Assembly: GCA_965372715.1 (NCBI GenBank)
Contig: CBDVDH010000037.1
Span: forward strand, 1-38,266
DNA from: an uncultured bacterium
Lineage (GTDB): Bacteria > B130-G9
Length of the DNA: 38,266 nt
Direction of reading: 5' to 3'
Below, piece by piece: positions 5,130 to 12,512 of this stretch; the stretch's first letter is position 1, and each line of letters opens with the position of its first letter. The translations under genes and the position numbers were made by a program. The notes beneath the pieces are model-generated. The model was not told where the DNA came from, ran no database searches, and worked only from the letters and a program-made list of their open reading frames with translations.

Positions 5130-5190
5130 CCTCCGTGATTTCAGCCATGAACATGGCTGGTGTTCGGGCATCCTTGCCCTAGTTCCTAGC
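5130..5190 (-). promoter_or_regulatory. Putative CsrA/RsmA binding sites in flagellin leader
   Basis: Minus strand GGGCA-AGGA-TGCCC hairpin with AGGA loop (5166-5179), a second AGGA just upstream and ACGGA overlapping the SD. Confidence 0.55.
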
Positions 5191-5304
5191 CGCGCTGCTT
5201 TTCGCAGCCAGCTTCTGAATCCAAAAGAGTCTTGACCCTGGGCTTCACCTCCCTCTCTGATTCTCTTCTTACCTTCCAGGCATTCGCATCAACTGCTCCA
5301 GCAC

Positions 5305-5331
5305 TTATCGAAGGCAGCCGGGGAAACTTTA
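5305..5331 (-). promoter_or_regulatory. Sigma28 (FliA) promoter of flagellin copy 2
   Basis: Minus strand TAAAGTTT-N11-TTCGATAA versus consensus TAAAGTTT-N11-GCCGATAA. Confidence 0.75.
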
Positions 5332-5408
5332 GGGCTTTTTTGCAGGCCAATCGCGAGACCCTACGGGGGCGGGGCAAGGAGGCTGTCTCATAAGTCGATT
5401 GGGGTTGC

Positions 5409-5479
5409 GTAGGGGCGGACCCCCGCGTCCGCCCTCCGTGATTCAATTGGATCGGGCAGGCGCGGGGGCCTGCCCCTAC
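5409..5479. repeat. GTAG-type REP-like inverted pair
   Basis: GTAGGGGCGGACCCCCGCGTCCGCCC ... GGGCAGGCGCGGGGGCCTGCCCCTAC; the terminal CTAC contains the TAG stop of the radical SAM gene. Confidence 0.75.
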
Positions 5480-6489
5480 AACACGTGCTCGCCCTCGCGC
5501 GCGGACATGCGGCCGTCGAAGCGCCCGTCAACGTGCTCCGTCTCATACTCCGAGCAAAAGCTGCACAGCGAGCAGAAGCGCCCGTGGCCGTGATCCGCGC
5601 GCAGGCGAATCATTTCGCCCGAATTGAGGATGCTTGTTATATCTTGCTCGGTGGCATCTCCCACCTGAAGCGCCCCGTCATAGTCCACGCAACACGCAAC
5701 CACCCGGCCGTCCCAAAGAACCACAAGCGTTCCCTTCCATAGCTCCCGACACGGCCTGACGCGTCTCACCTCATCGTAGGTCAACATCGGCTGAAAACTT
5801 ATGTAGTCCACCTTGCCTGCCCAGACCGACTTGAACCGCTCCACCTGATGCTCCGTGTCCGCCGAGACCACGTAGTTGATCTCGACCCGGAGCCTCGGAT
5901 TATGCTTCTCCTTCATCTTCAGGAAGCCCAATAGATTCTGCTCCAATACGCGGTAATCAACCCCCCGAAGCGAGGTATAGACATCGTCGAGTCCGTCTAT
6001 TGAGAAGCATATAGTCGAAAGGCCGGCCCGAATGATCTCTTCAGACAGCGACGGCGTCAGCAAAGTACCGTTTGTAACCATGAACGTTCTATGGCCGAGG
6101 CGCGTTGCCATTTGAATGATACCTGCAAGCTCGGGATGCAGCAGCGGCTCGCCCCAGTCGTAAAGATATACGTATTGAAGATGCTTGCAGCCTCTCAGAG
6201 CCCTTTCTGCGAGAGCGGGGTCCATGAATCCCCTCTGTCGCGTCATCTTCTCGCTCGGACAAAAGCAACACTTCAGGTTGCAGCGATTCGTCACCTCAAG
6301 CATGACGCTTGTGAGATAGAACGTCTTGGGGAGCCTCAGAACGAACGCGAGATGATTCAGCGCGGACCTCGCGAGATCGGCCGGGGTTTTACACCTATCA
6401 AAGACTACATCCGCGACCTGCCTGTTCCTGGCAATCCTCCGCGCGGCGATCAAGGCAAGGGAGCGCGCAGCCGCCTCAAGCTTGCCCAT
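5476..6489 (-). CDS. Radical SAM protein with C-terminal SPASM/twitch domain
   Basis: CxxxCxxC (CNLKCCFC), WGEPLLHP, TNG, SIDG; C-terminal CRELW...GRVVACC...LCSFC; 5' end overlaps the gatE 3' end by 14 bp. Confidence 0.88.
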   Translation of the reverse strand: MGKLEAAARSLALIAARRIARNRQVADVVFDRCKTPADLARSALNHLAFVLRLPKTFYLTSVMLEVTNRCNLKCCFCPSEKMTRQRGFMDPALAERALRGCKHLQYVYLYDWGEPLLHPELAGIIQMATRLGHRTFMVTNGTLLTPSLSEEIIRAGLSTICFSIDGLDDVYTSLRGVDYRVLEQNLLGFLKMKEKHNPRLRVEINYVVSADTEHQVERFKSVWAGKVDYISFQPMLTYDEVRRVRPCRELWKGTLVVLWDGRVVACCVDYDGALQVGDATEQDITSILNSGEMIRLRADHGHGRFCSLCSFCSEYETEHVDGRFDGRMSAREGEHVL

Positions 6490-8419
6490 AAGCCTTACTC
6501 AAGGCCGTGCGGAGGGCCTTAGCAACCCCCCTGGGCTGAAGCTTCCAGGCAGATGAGCACATGATGTCGCCCATCAGCGCCTCAAACACCTTATCTTCCG
6601 GCAGCGCTTCAAGCAGCTCTCGCCGAACCTCAATTCGCGCTGAAATGAACGCATCAAGCGCTCTTTTATCTAGTAGGTCCAGCCGATAGCGCTCGACCGC
6701 AACCTCAAGGGCATCGTCTAAGACGAGAATATCCCGCATCACCCACGCGACGGCTTCCTTCGACAACCTGCCCTCCTTGTAGGTCCTGAAAAGCTCGAAC
6801 ATCTCGTCGTCCAGAAGCCCCGACACGTCGAAACCAGCCCGCTCAAACCTCCTCAATCGCTGCGTGAGGACCGACGCCGCAAAACGCGGCTCAACGTTCA
6901 GTTCAGCCACAATTCGGTCGAAGACCAGCCAGCGCCCGTTGCGCATCAACTGCTTGACCGTCTCATCCGAGAGGCCGAGCTTGCGGAAACGCTCGTAGGC
7001 CTCGAATGGGTTGGCCCGGATATGGCCCTTTGTGCGCTCGGCACACTCAATCGGAACCGCAAGCGGCGGCAGATCGGTATCAGGATACATCCGATCGGGC
7101 CCAGGCAGGATTCGTTCAAAGCCTGTCGTCCCATCATCATACGCCTGCCTCGTCTCATTCGGAACACCGTCAATTGCGTCCTCTATTCTCAGTCGCGCCT
7201 CTGAAACTGCCGTCTTGACGTCCGGCCTGTTGCCCCAGACCAGAATGACTGCATCGTCCTTCGAGGCGCCAAGCGCGGAGAATATCTCTGCCCAAGCCTC
7301 GTCGCTGAGGTCACCGGTCTGCGTCTTGCCATCACTCCAGAGTATGTTGGGCTCGCCGTCCAGGCACGCAATGACCTTGATCCGCTGCGAGACCTCGAAG
7401 CCGAAGGTCTTATCGGGCTGTAGCTCGAAGCCAAGAAGTCCGGCAAGCCTGCCGAGCCCAATTGCCTCAACGCAGTTGCCCGGTTCTGCACCGAGCCCTG
7501 CTCCTAGGATTTCGGAGCCATGTTCACCAATAATACCGGTGACGTCCTTGTCCCAGCACTTCAGGCTGTCCTTTGTGACGCCGCGATTCGCGAGCTCGTC
7601 CCTGAGCTCCAGCAGGTGCTTCTGCCGCAGCGCCTCGAAATGGACAAGCGGGCCAATACGGGCGATCTGCGGAACGCCCTTTATCTCGACTCGCGTTGAG
7701 CCTGCGATGCTGACGTTCACGTCCTGACGCACGCTGCCTAGACCGCGTTGCACGAGTCCCGTCGCCTTGAGGCTCGTGCCGATCTGCTCCGCGACGCCCT
7801 GAACCTCCTGAGGCGTAACCATGTCGCGCTCGGTAACGACCTCGATGAGCGGCGTGCCGAGGCGATCGGCCTTGAACGTAATGCGGTGGCCGACGTCCGA
7901 GACTTCCCGGCAGGCATCCTCCTCGAGGCCGAGCTGCCGGACGCGGATTTTTCTGCCTTTGCAGTGGATGGCGCCGTCTATCCCTATGATGCAGGTCCGC
8001 TGGAAGCCCGTCGGGATACTCCCGTCGAGATATTGTTTGCGAGTTATGAATATCTCGTCGATCAGCGTGCAGCCGAGAAGCGTCGCAATGACGAGCGCAA
8101 TATCTACGGCGTCCTGATTGATCATAAACGGCGGCGTGTCGTCCATCTCATACGTGCAAACACAGTCGTGATACAGCTGATAGACGACCTCTTTCTTGGT
8201 CTTGAACTCCATCAACGCCGTCCCGTCGTATTCGCCGAGCTCGGACAGCGTGGGACGCATGTGCCGCACCACAACGGCGTCGAAATCGTTGTCTTTGTGC
8301 ATGATTACCGGACAGCGGCAGAAGAGCTTCTTTGACGTTTTGATCTGCTGGTGTATCTCAATGCCGGACGTGAGGCCTAGCTCTTTGTATTCCTCGTCGC
8401 TCAGATAATCGACCTTCAA
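6476..8419 (-). CDS. gatE: Archaeal-type Glu-tRNA(Gln) amidotransferase subunit E
   Basis: 647 aa; GIEIHQQ..KKLFCRCP, RPTLSELGE, DGS..TGFQRT, LEEDA, DRLGTPLIEV, RGLGSVRQDVNVSI, RVEIKGV, an insertion domain and GVPNETR...RILPGPDRMYPDTD. Length and motifs fit GatE rather than GatB. TTG start with AGGAG SD. Confidence 0.9.
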   Translation of the reverse strand: MKVDYLSDEEYKELGLTSGIEIHQQIKTSKKLFCRCPVIMHKDNDFDAVVVRHMRPTLSELGEYDGTALMEFKTKKEVVYQLYHDCVCTYEMDDTPPFMINQDAVDIALVIATLLGCTLIDEIFITRKQYLDGSIPTGFQRTCIIGIDGAIHCKGRKIRVRQLGLEEDACREVSDVGHRITFKADRLGTPLIEVVTERDMVTPQEVQGVAEQIGTSLKATGLVQRGLGSVRQDVNVSIAGSTRVEIKGVPQIARIGPLVHFEALRQKHLLELRDELANRGVTKDSLKCWDKDVTGIIGEHGSEILGAGLGAEPGNCVEAIGLGRLAGLLGFELQPDKTFGFEVSQRIKVIACLDGEPNILWSDGKTQTGDLSDEAWAEIFSALGASKDDAVILVWGNRPDVKTAVSEARLRIEDAIDGVPNETRQAYDDGTTGFERILPGPDRMYPDTDLPPLAVPIECAERTKGHIRANPFEAYERFRKLGLSDETVKQLMRNGRWLVFDRIVAELNVEPRFAASVLTQRLRRFERAGFDVSGLLDDEMFELFRTYKEGRLSKEAVAWVMRDILVLDDALEVAVERYRLDLLDKRALDAFISARIEVRRELLEALPEDKVFEALMGDIMCSSAWKLQPRGVAKALRTALSKAYGQA

Positions 8420-8497
8420 CCCTGAACTCTCCTTCGCTCACCAGGCAACCAATTCGCCGTTTTCCCGGACGGCTAACCGCCAACCGCCAACCGATCA

Positions 8498-8572
8498 TGG
8501 TTGGGGCGGGAGGATTTGAACCTCCACCTCGAGGTATAAAGCCCCGCGTCGTCCCAGTTCGACCACGCCCCT
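8498..8572 (-). tRNA. Non-canonical tRNA, anticodon UUA (ochre-reading), CCA encoded
   Basis: 75-nt cloverleaf: AGGGGCG TG GTCG AACTGGGA CGAC G CGGGG CTTTATA CCTCG AGGT GGAGG TTCAAAT CCTCC CGCCCCA A CCA; U8, A14, G18G19, U33, T-loop and A15-U48 intact. Confidence 0.85.
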
Positions 8573-8597
8573 GTACTTGCTGTCAACAATGAGCACG

Positions 8598-8625
8598 AAG
8601 ATAACATAGTGAGTCAGTCGGTCAA
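8598..8625 (-). promoter_or_regulatory. Sigma70-type promoter for tRNA-gatE unit
   Basis: Minus strand TTGACC-N16-TATCTT with extended -10 TG, 25 nt upstream of the tRNA. Confidence 0.55.
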
Positions 8626-9239: not shown

Positions 9240-9614
9240 GGAGCAGGGGAGGCGGTCGCTGGCGCGTTTAGCGCTGGAGGAAAGTCCGGACTCCGCAGGG
9301 CAGGGTGCTGGGTAACTCCCAGGGGGGGTGACCCCATGGAAAGTGCAACAGAGAGCAGACCGCGAACTCGCCTTGTTTGGCGAACGCAAGGGTGAAACGG
9401 TGAGGTAAGAGCTCACCAGCGGCTCGGGTGACCGGGCCGGCTAGGTAAACCCCGCTCGGAGCAAGACCAAATATGGGGGCGTTTGAGCGTGGCCCGCGCG
9501 AGCCCCCGGGTGGGTCGCACGAGGCGCCGGGGAACCGGCGTCCCAGATAAATGGCCGCTGCCCGCTGTGCGAGCAATCGCCCGCGGGAACAGAATCCGGC
9601 TTACCCCCTGCTCT
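9240..9614 (+). ncRNA. rnpB: RNase P RNA, bacterial type A
   Basis: GAGGAAAGTCCGGACTCC, GGAAAGTGCAACAGA, GGTGAAACGG, GGTAAACCCC..GGAGCAAG, AACAGAATCCGGCTTA; P1 pairing GAGCAGGGG/CCCCTGCTC. Confidence 0.97.
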
Positions 9615-9622
9615 GGCGCCTT

Positions 9623-11176
9623 TTAACGGACAGCAGCTGGCCTTCTGGGTCTGGCCACGCCCCCTTTTCTCCTCAGGTGGAAACCCTCCAAGTAAAGGTC
9701 TCCCACATCAACTCGGTTGTCCGAACGGTAAGAGAAGATCCCCAGATCAACGAGGTAGTTCAAGAGATGGCCGGGGCGCGTTTCGGGCGGGAGATTACGC
9801 TCTCCGGACCACTTGATTCCCTGTAATACGCCGAGAAACCTTTTTTGATCGCCCGGAACGAGAAGACCTTTCCCCTTGAAGCTCTCCCTGACTGTTCTTA
9901 TCCAAGGAAACTCCTCCTCGGCTAGCTCGTTGACTCGGTACTCCGATACCTTATCTAGGGCACCGCGAAGTGCCGTGTAGTGTATCAGGTTATTGGTGTT
10001 TTGCGCCTTTCTGTCCCTTACCTCGAATTCAGCGGCCTCCTCGACAAGACGGAGTAAAGAGCGCGGATAGATCCGCCCAAAACCGTCCTTGAGATGATTC
10101 GGCATCCAGGTCAGGGTGCGGCCCCTTCTGGGGTCCTTCCCCATGAATTCACCAAACATACGATTGACTACGAGCTTGTATCCTTCTTCTTCGGAGACCT
10201 GAGGGATTCTGCCCAAGTCTGCGTGGGAAGAAAACACGAGCTCATCGCACTTGATAGTCCTAAGCGGCAGGTTCATTTGCTTTGAGGCGGCTGGCTTGAG
10301 GTACTCAAAGAACAGTCGATCGTTCAGCAACCGCTTGAAAAGTACTCCATAGAATTCAGGTATGCTCCAAATCAATTCGGCCCTATTTGCTGCGATCTTC
10401 GCGATGTCCGGGCCGGACTGAGTAACCTTCCTGTATAGGTCTCGCCGCAAGAATATCTTCGGCCGTATGTTCCTTAGACGCCTCATGTATGCCCAGAAGT
10501 GAACCAACCCCTCAAGAACAGTCTCCAAGGATTCCCACTCTCCAGAGGTCATCCGATCGAGATAGTCATAGGAGACAAATGCGAAGTCGCCCTTTGCTCG
10601 AAGTGTCTCATCCAAACTATCAAGGGCTGAGTAGAGAGGCGCTAGGTTCTCGTCAATCTGTTGAACCAGCTTATTGAGGTCCCATTCTTTGCATAAGACT
10701 GCAGCAACCAATGAATCCGGGATAGCTGGCTTACGAATCAATTCATTCTCAACAAGAACTCTGAGAAGTAACCCAAGCCAGAACATCCGGAGATCAGCCG
10801 GCGTTTTCCCATCTGCGAACTGTGTGACAATCTCACCAGGAGGGAACGTCTTTTCGGCATCATCATATCCGACCAGCCATTTGGTCTTACGAATGTCCAA
10901 TGCAGATTGGTTCCTCTCTTTTGCCAGTTGCACCATTGCAGACCGCCCTGCGTCGTACTGCAAAGCTCGGAAAAGATGTGTCTTGCCAGAGCCCCTGTCC
11001 CCGATGATGAGTCGCACGTCAGGGTCGAGGACCCTGAAATGAGCCCGAATCGGCAAGAAGTTCTTGAGGAAAGCACTGCTATCTTCGGACTCACTTTCGG
11101 CCTGTCCTCGGCCACAGAGATCGAACAGCTTATGGAGGAGAGCCTGTCGTCGCTGATCACCCAGCCATCTACTCAT
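9623..11176 (-). CDS. P-loop NTPase, partner of KGGVGR ATPase
   Basis: Walker A IIGDRGSGKT, Walker B-like FVSYDYLDR, KIFLRRD; likely start MSRWLG overlapping the upstream stop. Confidence 0.8.
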   Translation of the reverse strand: MSRWLGDQRRQALLHKLFDLCGRGQAESESEDSSAFLKNFLPIRAHFRVLDPDVRLIIGDRGSGKTHLFRALQYDAGRSAMVQLAKERNQSALDIRKTKWLVGYDDAEKTFPPGEIVTQFADGKTPADLRMFWLGLLLRVLVENELIRKPAIPDSLVAAVLCKEWDLNKLVQQIDENLAPLYSALDSLDETLRAKGDFAFVSYDYLDRMTSGEWESLETVLEGLVHFWAYMRRLRNIRPKIFLRRDLYRKVTQSGPDIAKIAANRAELIWSIPEFYGVLFKRLLNDRLFFEYLKPAASKQMNLPLRTIKCDELVFSSHADLGRIPQVSEEEGYKLVVNRMFGEFMGKDPRRGRTLTWMPNHLKDGFGRIYPRSLLRLVEEAAEFEVRDRKAQNTNNLIHYTALRGALDKVSEYRVNELAEEEFPWIRTVRESFKGKGLLVPGDQKRFLGVLQGIKWSGERNLPPETRPGHLLNYLVDLGIFSYRSDNRVDVGDLYLEGFHLRRKGGVARPRRPAAVR

Positions 11177-12512
11177 CAAGCGTCCTCCCGACGCGCTCCA
11201 GAATAAGCCTCGCGAAGTCCCTGAAGTCACCCTCTGAAAGACGGTCTGCTATGTCTCGAATATGGTCAGCTTCCTTAACGATGGGGTCGAAACCTAGTGT
11301 GATCGGGTAATGCGGCTTGTCTGATGTATCTATTGAAGGTACGGGACGCCTCGTCTCACCCGTAGCCTCCTCCTTGTCATAATAGTTCGTGCTGAACAAC
11401 TCGTAGGAACGGTCGAGGAAACGCTCAAGTTGGTCATTGCGTTTCTTTCCCGGGGCAGGCGCCATGGCGAATATAAGGGCGCAATCGAGCTGTTTCTTGC
11501 CTCTCTCGATTAGGTCACGACCCAAGAAACGGACTATCAGTTCCATACCTCGCCAGCTCTGCTCGCTGCTTAGGCCGAACAGAACATCCAGGTGTGACAT
11601 TCCTGATAGCGCCAAGCCTCCTAAGTCATGGAATCCCGCTCGTGAGTCAATGAGGATGTAATCGACATTCCTTTCTGATCTAATATGTTTGAGAAGCTCC
11701 TTTAGAGGCAAGACCCCTGGTCTTTCCCCGGGCATAGGGGCATAGAGCGCCTCGTAGTCAATGCGAGCGAGCTTTTCGAGGTAGTTGTGATCAAGCTTGC
11801 CCGCTGGGACAACCGTGATTGGGGGGCCGTCGGCAACCAGCATCGGGTCGTCAACTAGGTGATAGTAATCGGCGATGTCCATGCTCCCTTTCGAGCCAAG
11901 AATGCAGCATTCTAGAAGATAATCGACAACACCATATTCAGCGACCTGACCGTCCGCGCCCGGCAGCAACGATGAAAGACCAGGCGCCTCAAGATCAAGA
12001 TCAATGACCGCGACTTTCTTACCGCTGCGAGCGAGTTGGATTGCAAGAGAGACCAAGGCGGTAGTGCGCCCTACGCCACCTTTGAAGGAGTAAAAGGACA
12101 AAACTGGCGGGGTTTGCTTCTTGAGAGGCCATGGTTCGTCCAGGACGGGATTGAACCAGGATGCCTTCGAGATGTGGCGGTCAAGAACCTTGATCTCAGG
12201 CGGGCCGGAATCAACGGACTTCGCAGATTCCCATGCTCGCTCGTAAACGGCCTCTTCGGCCTTGGATGAGTCCTCAGACCATACCCATATCTCGTCCTTC
12301 CAGAAGGGGCCGGCGGCGTCTTGGAGAATCCCCTCGACTGTCGCTTTAGCGTTCTCAACATCGCCCTTCTCATCGACCTTCAGCAGAGCTCGCAGAATGC
12401 CCTTGATGTCCCATATAAGGCAGACACGCGATACGCCATTGCCAGTCAAATCGGACTTCTTCCGGAGAACCCCATTCTGAACATCCCGCCGGGCCTCACT
12501 GAAATGCTTCAT
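11169..12512 (-). CDS. ParA/MinD-like ATPase, KGGVGR variant
   Basis: SFYSFKGGVGRTT, VIDLDLEAPGL, ILIDSRAG; ATGA overlap with the upstream gene. Confidence 0.85.
   Translation of the reverse strand: MKHFSEARRDVQNGVLRKKSDLTGNGVSRVCLIWDIKGILRALLKVDEKGDVENAKATVEGILQDAAGPFWKDEIWVWSEDSSKAEEAVYERAWESAKSVDSGPPEIKVLDRHISKASWFNPVLDEPWPLKKQTPPVLSFYSFKGGVGRTTALVSLAIQLARSGKKVAVIDLDLEAPGLSSLLPGADGQVAEYGVVDYLLECCILGSKGSMDIADYYHLVDDPMLVADGPPITVVPAGKLDHNYLEKLARIDYEALYAPMPGERPGVLPLKELLKHIRSERNVDYILIDSRAGFHDLGGLALSGMSHLDVLFGLSSEQSWRGMELIVRFLGRDLIERGKKQLDCALIFAMAPAPGKKRNDQLERFLDRSYELFSTNYYDKEEATGETRRPVPSIDTSDKPHYPITLGFDPIVKEADHIRDIADRLSEGDFRDFARLILERVGRTLDE

Follow-up and report, generated by a model that had tools for sequence, protein, structure and literature searches.

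In Escherichia coli, the ochre suppressor supB and the amber suppressor supE are forms of tRNAGln with a UUA or CUA anticodon, and in the thrU-tyrU-glyT-thrT-tufB operon tRNA genes are co-transcribed with a gene for translation. In Staphylococcus, non-proteinogenic tRNAGly isoacceptors serve peptidoglycan bridges, the acceptor enzymes being the Fem transferases. The amidotransferase GatDE, which acts on Glu-tRNAGln, is described as confined to archaea in the available passages of reviews from 2008 and 2022 (PMC2330236, PMC9499178). The locus studied here is bacterial: in contig CBDVDH010000037.1 (assembly GCA_965372715.1), the 38,266 nucleotides (nt) of which are referred to as the window, a tRNA gene with the stop-complementary anticodon UUA heads an operon that continues with gatE and a gene for a radical S-adenosylmethionine (SAM) protein. 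Comparison of this linked tRNA with its orthologues shows that it is real, old and under selection at its upper half and 3' end, rather than in its anticodon loop. The explanation tentatively preferred is that a tRNAGln paralogue has been insulated from translation and retained to serve the gatE operon as substrate or ligand.

The genome holding the window (G000; 3.56 Mb in 112 contigs, 56.7% G+C) was compared with the six other species-level genomes (G001 to G006) of its lineage, Candidatus Coatesbacteria, in the collection used, giving seven in total. The parts of the operon in the window are:

8598-8625, reverse strand: sigma-70-like promoter, TTGACC-16-TATCTT with TG before the -10 hexamer, about 25 nt upstream of the tRNA (9/12 matches)
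8498-8572, reverse strand: tRNA of 75 nt with anticodon UUA, a tRNAGln(UUG) paralogue (ARAGORN and Rfam RF00005)
8475-8493, reverse strand: heptamer GGCGGTT (as read on the coding strand) in 2.7 tandem copies, directly 3' of the tRNA in the spacer
6476-8419, reverse strand: gatE, encoding the kinase/amidotransferase subunit E of the Glu-tRNA(Gln) amidotransferase GatDE, 647 amino acids (NCBIfam and structure alignment)
5476-6489, reverse strand: gene for a radical SAM/SPASM protein, 337 amino acids (Pfam PF04055 and PF13186)

ARAGORN found a single tRNA in the whole 38-kb window, at 8498-8572 on the reverse strand with tta at position 34, and the Rfam model RF00005 scores it at 51.2 bits, above the gathering score of 29 bits. 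The acceptor stem, AGGGGCG/CGCCCCA, leaves an A1xA72 mismatch. The D stem is GUCG/CGAC and includes U11-A24, the anticodon stem (CGGGG/CCUCG) contains one G.U pair, and the anticodon loop, C-U-UUA-U-A, has a pyrimidine, U37, after the anticodon. The tertiary bases U8, A14, A15 and G18G19 are present, the variable loop is AGGU (four bases), the T loop is UUCAAAU, and the discriminator A is followed by a CCA encoded in the gene. A spacer of 78 nt separates the tRNA from the TTG start of gatE at 8419. The first-pass annotation of this DNA, made from the letters alone, had described an intact 75-nt tRNA with anticodon UUA and CCA lying 78 nt before gatE; ARAGORN, RF00005 and the sequence itself uphold each part of that description. 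Near-relative contigs from three of four independent salt-marsh runs span the tRNA, and the bases that had been singled out for checking (8535-8541, 8502 and 8572) are the same in them as in the window; the differences lie at 8523, 8544 and 8573. As four other genomes also have UUA, and the near-relative contigs agree at 8535-8541, this anticodon is not an assembly slip.

The 45 other tRNAs of G000 form a full set, including tRNAGln(CUG), tRNAGln(UUG), two tRNAGlu and tRNASec. No further stop anticodon was found among these 45, and in all of them the acceptor stem pairs at 7/7 positions, leaving the linked tRNA alone in being mismatched at 1x72. In elongator tRNAs, U33 and a purine at position 37 flank the anticodon. 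Among the seven linked tRNAs, position 37 is occupied by U in six cases and by C in the seventh, and position 33 by C in that of G004. A1xA72 is present in six of the seven, only G003 having the U1-A72 pair typical of bacterial tRNAGln. The anticodon likewise departs from the YUG of bacterial tRNAGln: it is UUA in five genomes (G000, G001, G003, G005 and G006), CUA in G002 and CUG in G004, being complementary to a stop codon in six of seven orthologues. Hence the pyrimidine 37 and the A1xA72 mismatch, both noted as oddities on first inspection, are conserved across the lineage and not private to G000. A pyrimidine at 37, C33 and a mismatch at 1x72 are features expected to give poor decoding.

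GatE orthologues, 68-93% identical, were found in all six relatives, and in all seven genomes a tRNA lies directly before gatE on the same strand and a radical SAM gene directly after it. The flagellin gene that comes next is found in this position in G000, G001, G002 and G006 only, the contig of G005 stopping just past the radical SAM gene and the operon of G003 terminating at a convergent gene. As the flagellin linkage is not universal, the conserved core is tRNA-gatE-rSAM (rSAM being the radical SAM gene). The recurrence of such tRNAs beside gatE, which the first-pass annotation had named as a check that would support a system, is borne out throughout the lineage; the radical SAM/SPASM gene, third of the conserved genes, had been overlooked. 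In a tree of GatE the lineage forms one clade (support 100/100), in which G003 and G004 are basal, though their order is unresolved, and the CUA-bearing G002 is nested in a genus with UUA. This nesting implies that UUA is old and that the anticodon has changed at least twice.

The body of the linked tRNA identifies its source. Positions 2-7/66-71 of the acceptor stem and the T stem are those of the host tRNAGln(UUG), to which the linked tRNA is identical at 46-53/72 positions, the best match among the tRNAPro, tRNAGlu, tRNALys and archaeal-type tRNAGln with which it was compared. An archaeal origin was considered and rejected, with only 29-40/73 positions identical to archaeal-type tRNAGln. 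These comparisons indicate that the linked tRNA descends from tRNAGln, in line with the connection first proposed. Canonical tRNAGln(CUG), 99-100% identical to the G000 copy, is present in every genome searched, including G004, whose linked tRNA reads CUG too; that of G006 is cut by a contig end and represented by its 3' part only. Canonical tRNAGln is thus retained everywhere, making the linked tRNA an extra tRNAGln paralogue in all genomes.

The seven linked tRNAs have a mean column identity of 92%, and 93.9% of their stem cells are paired, the changes being mostly wobble-compatible. In the anticodon arm, six of the seven loop columns (U35 being the exception) and five of the ten stem columns are variable. 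The D stem varies at three of its eight columns and the T stem at three of ten. Of the 14 acceptor-stem columns, position 1 alone varies; the T loop has one variable column out of seven, and the three columns of the CCA have none.

By contrast, the anticodon loops of the canonical tRNAGln genes in the same genomes show no variation. The pattern in the linked tRNA is the reverse of that of a decoder. In the part of the 2008 review that treats recognition, both amidotransferases are said to disregard the anticodon, GatDE contacting the acceptor stem, the T stem-loop and the D loop, and bacterial GatCAB reading the U1-A72 pair (PMC2330236). The frozen regions of the linked tRNA match the footprint of these enzymes, which would be the ones to handle it.

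Slow decay of a redundant tRNAGln copy, without any selected function, would account for some of this variation. The linked tRNAs evolve faster than the canonical genes across the same genera, the canonical tRNAGln(UUG) copies of G001-G004 differing by at most about 2 bases; several of their bases are non-standard; and their RF00005 scores are low, with an overall range of 44-52 bits (43.8-52.5 bits in five of the six other loci), the copy in G004 having been found by ARAGORN only and not reported at the gathering score. Decay is nonetheless improbable. The tRNA has been kept in four genera with no loss among the orthologues (7/7), its T loop, G18G19, CCA and stem pairing are intact, and it can be aligned between genomes while the neighbouring non-coding DNA barely can. 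A promoter-like site is also conserved before it. The first-pass statement that the tRNA does not look decayed therefore stands, on its intactness in the window and its conservation upstream of gatE in all seven genomes.

Taken alone, the promoter is weak: a scan found two such sites, the one at 8625-8598 on the reverse strand among them, when 1.5 are expected by chance. However, hexamers resembling it (TTGAC..TATG/TATT) occur at a comparable distance before the tRNA in the six orthologues with enough upstream flank, G005 having been left out as only 15 nt are available. No terminator-like site was found between the tRNA and gatE in a scan of the window, and the folding of the spacer gave no significant structure (z = 0.02). 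The heptamer repeat in the spacer may be a protein-binding or processing signal; repeats resembling RGTTGGC were seen, by eye, in the spacers of most orthologues. In one near relative, a 56-nt insertion lies at this repeat.

The base at position -1 is complementary to that at 73 in six of seven linked tRNA orthologues, through four types of pair and with changes on both sides. A special acceptor stem of eight base pairs was considered as an explanation and rejected: the covariation is real, but the same complementarity is found in 38 of the 46 tRNA genes of G000 (as C:G, A:U and U:A pairs), against some 17 expected if the bases were random. The genome-wide habit may reflect the choice of the RNase P cut site in the lineage, and its retention implies that the linked tRNA gene has to satisfy the processing requirements that apply to functional tRNA genes.

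A separate observation concerns another acceptor stem of this genome. The usual bacterial initiator tRNAMet carries a C1xA72 mismatch. In G000, an initiator-like tRNAMet (C54:21779-21855), with three G-C pairs at the foot of the anticodon stem, apparently has U1-A72, according to a single unchecked reading.

These processing features raise a further explanation for the locus, in which the tRNA fold is kept as a cis-acting element, providing a promoter and cuts by RNase P and RNase Z that yield the gatE-rSAM mRNA, while the tRNA product itself has no job. The fixed position at the head of the operon in 7/7 genomes, the lack of a terminator-like site before gatE, the unconstrained anticodon loop and the processing-level complementarity at -1:73 would all be compatible with such a role, and tRNA genes at the head of operons for translation genes, as with tufB, are classical. 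Processing requires shape and not sequence, yet 13 of the 14 acceptor-stem columns are invariant, compared with variation, mostly wobble-compatible, at 11 of the 28 columns of the other stems. Furthermore, the sequence that is frozen is that of the host tRNAGln, the CCA is invariant, and pairing in the anticodon stem is kept, including one double change, although RNase P has no need of it. A cis-acting element is hence thought unlikely, if somewhat less so than decay; it is the frozen, tRNAGln-specific acceptor stem and the retention of the tRNA in 7/7 genomes that make both of these explanations less likely.

The product of the linked gene is a true GatE. It scores 549.6 bits against NF003107 (cut-off 456) and 467.9 bits against TIGR00134 (cut-off 319.55), and aligns over its full length with the archaeal GatE of 1ZQ1 and 2D6F (residues 10-642 with 1ZQ1). 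H23, E166 and E193, which do not vary among the seven orthologues, correspond in the alignment to His15, Glu157 and Glu184 of Methanothermobacter thermautotrophicus GatE, which bind Mg and are reported in the portion of the review available to be essential (PMC2330236). GatE is accordingly predicted to be catalytically intact. The start of the radical SAM gene overlaps the stop of gatE by 14 nt, and in its product the CxxxCxxC cysteines (C70, C74 and C77) and the C-terminal SPASM cysteines are invariant in 18 sequences.

The aminoacylation genes of G000 fit an indirect route to Gln-tRNAGln. The genome encodes one bacterial-type glutamyl-tRNA synthetase (GluRS) and no glutaminyl-tRNA synthetase (GlnRS), which implies that the single GluRS must be non-discriminating, and this set agrees with the first-pass proposal that such an enzyme charges the linked tRNA. 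GatD, which had been named as one of the genes to look for, is present (498.9 bits against TIGR02153, cut-off 324; contig C16) with GatD_N and both asparaginase domains. Its gene is unlinked to gatE and has no notable neighbours, whereas gatD adjoins gatE in 130 of 160 other loci. GatA, GatB and the asparaginyl- and aspartyl-tRNA synthetases (AsnRS and AspRS) are also encoded. The presence of genes for both GatCAB and GatDE gives the organism two Glu-tRNAGln amidotransferases.

The occurrence of archaeal-type gatE in a bacterium, remarked on in the first-pass annotation, is genuine but is not an oddity of this genome, since the clade is widespread in bacteria. GatE is encoded in at least 589 stretches of the genome collection and at least 587 of the metagenomes. 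The best 80 of the at least 589 genomic matches all have bacterial titles, include contigs and chromosomes of 1.3-4.2 Mb, and come from groups such as the Ignavibacteria, Aminicenantes, Phycisphaerae, Bacteroidota, KSB1 and WOR-3. More than 1,000 bacterial gatE loci exist, of which the best 160 (L024-L183) were fetched. The combination of a stop-anticodon tRNA with a radical SAM gene was found at 3/160 loci, all of them from Coatesbacteria, and linkage of gatE to a radical SAM gene outside the lineage was sought among the best 160 loci and rejected. In five other GatE-bearing bacteria, the seven tRNAGln genes recovered all have U1-A72, G37 and G73, and no stop-anticodon tRNA was present among the 31 tRNAs of the 20 best-scoring loci. 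With the query used, no match to GatB was found in three of these five.

Four of the gatE contigs are low in G+C and probably archaeal, because one of them encodes NMD3. In two such low-GC contigs, from metagenomes, a tRNAGln(CUG) lies just downstream of gatE (L111:2614-2687 and L115:2474-2548). That of L115 has both A1xA72 and U37, the same two oddities as the tRNA of the Coatesbacteria.

The main rival of an insulated tRNA is a weak, Gln-inserting suppressor, that is, a natural nonsense suppressor of the supB/supE kind, charged by GluRS and an amidotransferase and placing Gln, at a low or regulated level, at UAA or UAG codons in chosen genes. Descent from tRNAGln, anticodons that complement a stop in 6/7 orthologues and that in all three forms read stop or Gln codons, an encoded CCA and a promoter of its own are what such a suppressor would be expected to have. 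The use of stop codons gives no sign that any is read as sense. Open reading frames (ORFs) of at least 300 amino acids in G000 end in TGA in 46% of cases, TAG in 37% and TAA in 17%, so that TAA remains in regular use. In a sample of the CUA-bearing G002 (247 kb, 20 contigs), TAG ends 38-42% of long ORFs and is not depleted; in G004, TAA is more frequent, ending 26-30% (n = 76 and 47), but this sample (138 kb) is too small, and its G+C content too low, for a conclusion. In G000, 4.4% of TAA stops are followed in frame by further coding-like sequence, compared with 5.3% of TAG and 4.3% of TGA stops, which is no excess for TAA, and nearly all of these continuations are adjacent genes with their own start. 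Genes for release factor 1 (RF1; 488.8 bits) and a second release factor (RF2) are present.

A stricter screen of G000 for in-frame stops gave one TAA candidate, compared with three for TAG and four for TGA. The sole TAA candidate, P0121 on contig C24 (L189:2320-4590, reverse strand), is a conserved secreted protein with a Big_5 Ig-like domain, the orthologues of which in G001, G003 and G006 are uninterrupted. It could be counted in favour of suppression, but the site is not conserved, having Ser, Arg, Thr or Pro in the orthologues and Ser in the sister genome; as a case of read-through it was rejected, being probably an ordinary nonsense change or an assembly error. Comparisons of orthologous segments (106+47 and 113+50) likewise yielded no in-frame TAA or TAG that was convincing. 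Genome-wide recoding of TAA can be dismissed on the combined grounds that TAA ends 17% of long ORFs, no excess of read-through is seen, the release factors are present and no in-frame TAA is conserved. In G000 the signs of a variant code (in-frame stops in conserved genes, depletion of a stop codon, loss of a release factor) were not found. The change from UUA to CUA or CUG would furthermore alter the codon read, and the pyrimidine at 37, C33 and the 1x72 mismatch predict poor decoding. Suppression thus seems rather unlikely, while remaining the closest competitor of an insulated tRNA. The first-pass suggestion of use as an ochre or amber suppressor finds no backing in the tests of usage, continuation and orthologues, which failed to detect UAA or UAG as sense codons. 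Between the two uses it had offered, decoding loses its fixed codon target, as UUA, CUA and CUG vary between genera, and the other, a non-decoding carrier, is favoured.

A system comparable to those for selenocysteine and pyrrolysine, in which a non-standard residue, destined for insertion at UAA, would be assembled on the tRNA by GatE together with the radical SAM enzyme, was also considered. A stop-anticodon tRNA beside a modifier of tRNA-bound amino acids and a coupled radical SAM gene, in 7/7 genomes and in this lineage only (3/160 gatE loci), is an arrangement that such a system might show. Target genes with conserved in-frame stops were, however, not found in the screen of G000 or the orthologue comparisons, the anticodon varies, and position 37 is a pyrimidine in all orthologues. 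No dedicated elongation factor or aminoacyl-tRNA synthetase turned up in the window, where no search aimed at them was made, and the radical SAM protein has no assignable chemistry. This is the least credible of the explanations, and a very remote one.

That codons read vary between genera, together with the features predicting poor decoding, leads to the tentatively preferred reading of a tRNAGln paralogue insulated from translation. The linked tRNA would still be glutamylated by the single non-discriminating GluRS, with Y34, U35, U11-A24 and the four-base variable loop all being kept, and its Glu would be converted to Gln by an amidotransferase, for which GatDE is the candidate by linkage and GatCAB a further possibility. 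The mismatch at 1x72, the pyrimidine at 37 and the C33 of one genus may exclude the tRNA from the ribosome or leave it decoding very poorly. A stop or Gln anticodon would be a harmless state for a charged tRNA not meant to read sense codons. The value of the tRNA would then reside in its charged acceptor end, as a private substrate or an activating ligand of GatE or GatDE. It might also feed the co-translated radical SAM enzyme, any read-through with Gln being a by-product at most. Charging, amidation and downstream use are all inferred.

Several points weigh against an insulated tRNA. No non-ribosomal acceptor for the charged tRNA was identified, and the radical SAM protein could not be assigned a function after comparison with NCBIfam (no named subfamily reached its cut-off, the best being TIGR04317 at 101 bits against 380), a homologue search, a protein atlas and inspection of the genes around a distant homologue. 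The genome further encodes GatCAB and AsnRS, so that GatDE may be the housekeeping Glu-tRNA amidotransferase and the linkage no more than co-transcription as with tufB. GatE itself shows no special divergence such as would point to a new specificity: the G000 GatE and GatD are on average 52% and 70% identical to those of other bacteria, and the ratio of GatE to GatD identity is 0.74, compared with 0.78 among the other bacteria, so that no accelerated evolution of GatE is seen. As the five other GatE-bearing bacteria have canonical tRNAGln only, the dedicated system envisaged by the first-pass annotation is not borne out. UUA, CUA and CUG all fall within the set of stop or Gln anticodons, which is equally expected of a decoder carrying Gln; with about four changes, all of them transitions, the insulated tRNA and the Gln decoder cannot be told apart on this basis. 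Finally, an in-frame stop follows within three codons of TAA in 13.1% of cases, against 9.1% and 9.7% for the other two stops, a possible hint of read-through. This mild excess of back-up stops is weak evidence, confounded by base composition.

A more ambitious version of the insulated tRNA is that GatE, with or without GatD, and the coupled radical SAM enzyme use it as a private scaffold for a product derived from Glu or Gln, which would amount to a new tRNA-dependent biosynthetic pathway in bacteria. The product might be made, for example, from the gamma-phosphoryl-Glu-tRNA intermediate and passed to a non-ribosomal acceptor or, rarely, to protein at stop codons. Such a pathway is doubtful in the extreme, about on a level with decay. 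Should the insulated tRNA prove to be charged but held off the ribosome, it would be a natural case of a tRNA kept for a non-decoding role linked to an amidotransferase, and the orthogonal-looking set of tRNA and enzyme might be of use in engineering the genetic code. Should it instead suppress, it would be a rare natural ochre or amber suppressor spanning a phylum.

The remaining features of the window discussed here lie on either side of the operon:

5186-5446, reverse strand: ORF of 86 amino acids between the radical SAM gene and the first flagellin gene, no family match
9240-9618, forward strand: bacterial class A RNase P RNA, 294 bits (Rfam)
9623-12512, reverse strand: overlapping pair of P-loop ATPase genes, Sll1717 family and KGGVGR-motif AAA ATPase (NCBIfam)

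The 86-residue ORF is kept at 40-70% identity in G001, G002, G005 and G006, and two flagellin genes and flaG also lie downstream of the radical SAM gene. The RNase P RNA lies on the other strand, some 670 nt upstream of the tRNA, and is not adjacent to it within the orthologous loci fetched. The ATPase pair scores 97.8 bits for the Sll1717 family (cut-off 75) and 173.8 bits for the KGGVGR AAA ATPase (cut-off 90). Elsewhere the window holds type II secretion and type IV pilus genes, an extracytoplasmic function (ECF) sigma/anti-sigma pair and P-loop ATPases. The bacterial RNase P RNA, flagellin and type II secretion genes make the contig plainly bacterial.

The tRNA-gatE-rSAM arrangement was not described in the parts seen of the literature searched, which covered bacterial GatDE, natural ochre suppressors and GatE with radical SAM proteins. 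It appears to be new, related both to suppressor-type tRNAGln and to tRNA-dependent amidation, and situated in a bacterial GatDE clade unacknowledged in those portions of the reviews that were available. With supB and supE the linked tRNA shares a tRNAGln body, an anticodon one transition away from the canonical (UUG to UUA, CUG to CUA) and the expectation of carrying Gln. Those suppressors, however, arose by mutation of canonical genes in the laboratory or in single strains, are charged by GlnRS and retain purine 37 and U1-A72, whereas the linked tRNA is a separate paralogue across a phylum-level lineage, with pyrimidine 37 and A1xA72, tied to gatE and predicted to be charged indirectly. The tufB operon offers the parallel of a tRNA with its own promoter at the head of an operon encoding a protein of the aminoacyl-tRNA pathway, but its tRNAs are ordinary decoders, in contrast to one with a stop anticodon and a drifting anticodon loop. 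Selenocysteine and pyrrolysine systems likewise place a stop-anticodon tRNA in a cluster with enzymes that synthesize the amino acid or act on it, while differing in their conserved in-frame stops in target genes and fixed anticodon, neither of which is seen for the linked tRNA.

The tRNAGly isoacceptors of Staphylococcus are extra paralogues, charged by the normal synthetase, that carry changes avoiding EF-Tu and the ribosome and serve a non-ribosomal enzyme, and it is a role of this type that is tentatively proposed for the linked tRNA. They keep a sense (Gly) anticodon, whereas the candidate insulating features here are the 1x72 mismatch and the pyrimidine at 37. The archaeal GatDE pathway, as set out in the available passages of the reviews, is matched by a full-length GatE with its Mg-site residues, GatD, a non-discriminating GluRS and the lack of GlnRS (PMC2330236, PMC9499178). 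By contrast with that pathway, the present system belongs to a bacterial host that also has GatCAB and AsnRS, its gatD is unlinked, and its tRNA is of the bacterial type, with A1xA72 in place of the archaeal A1-U72.

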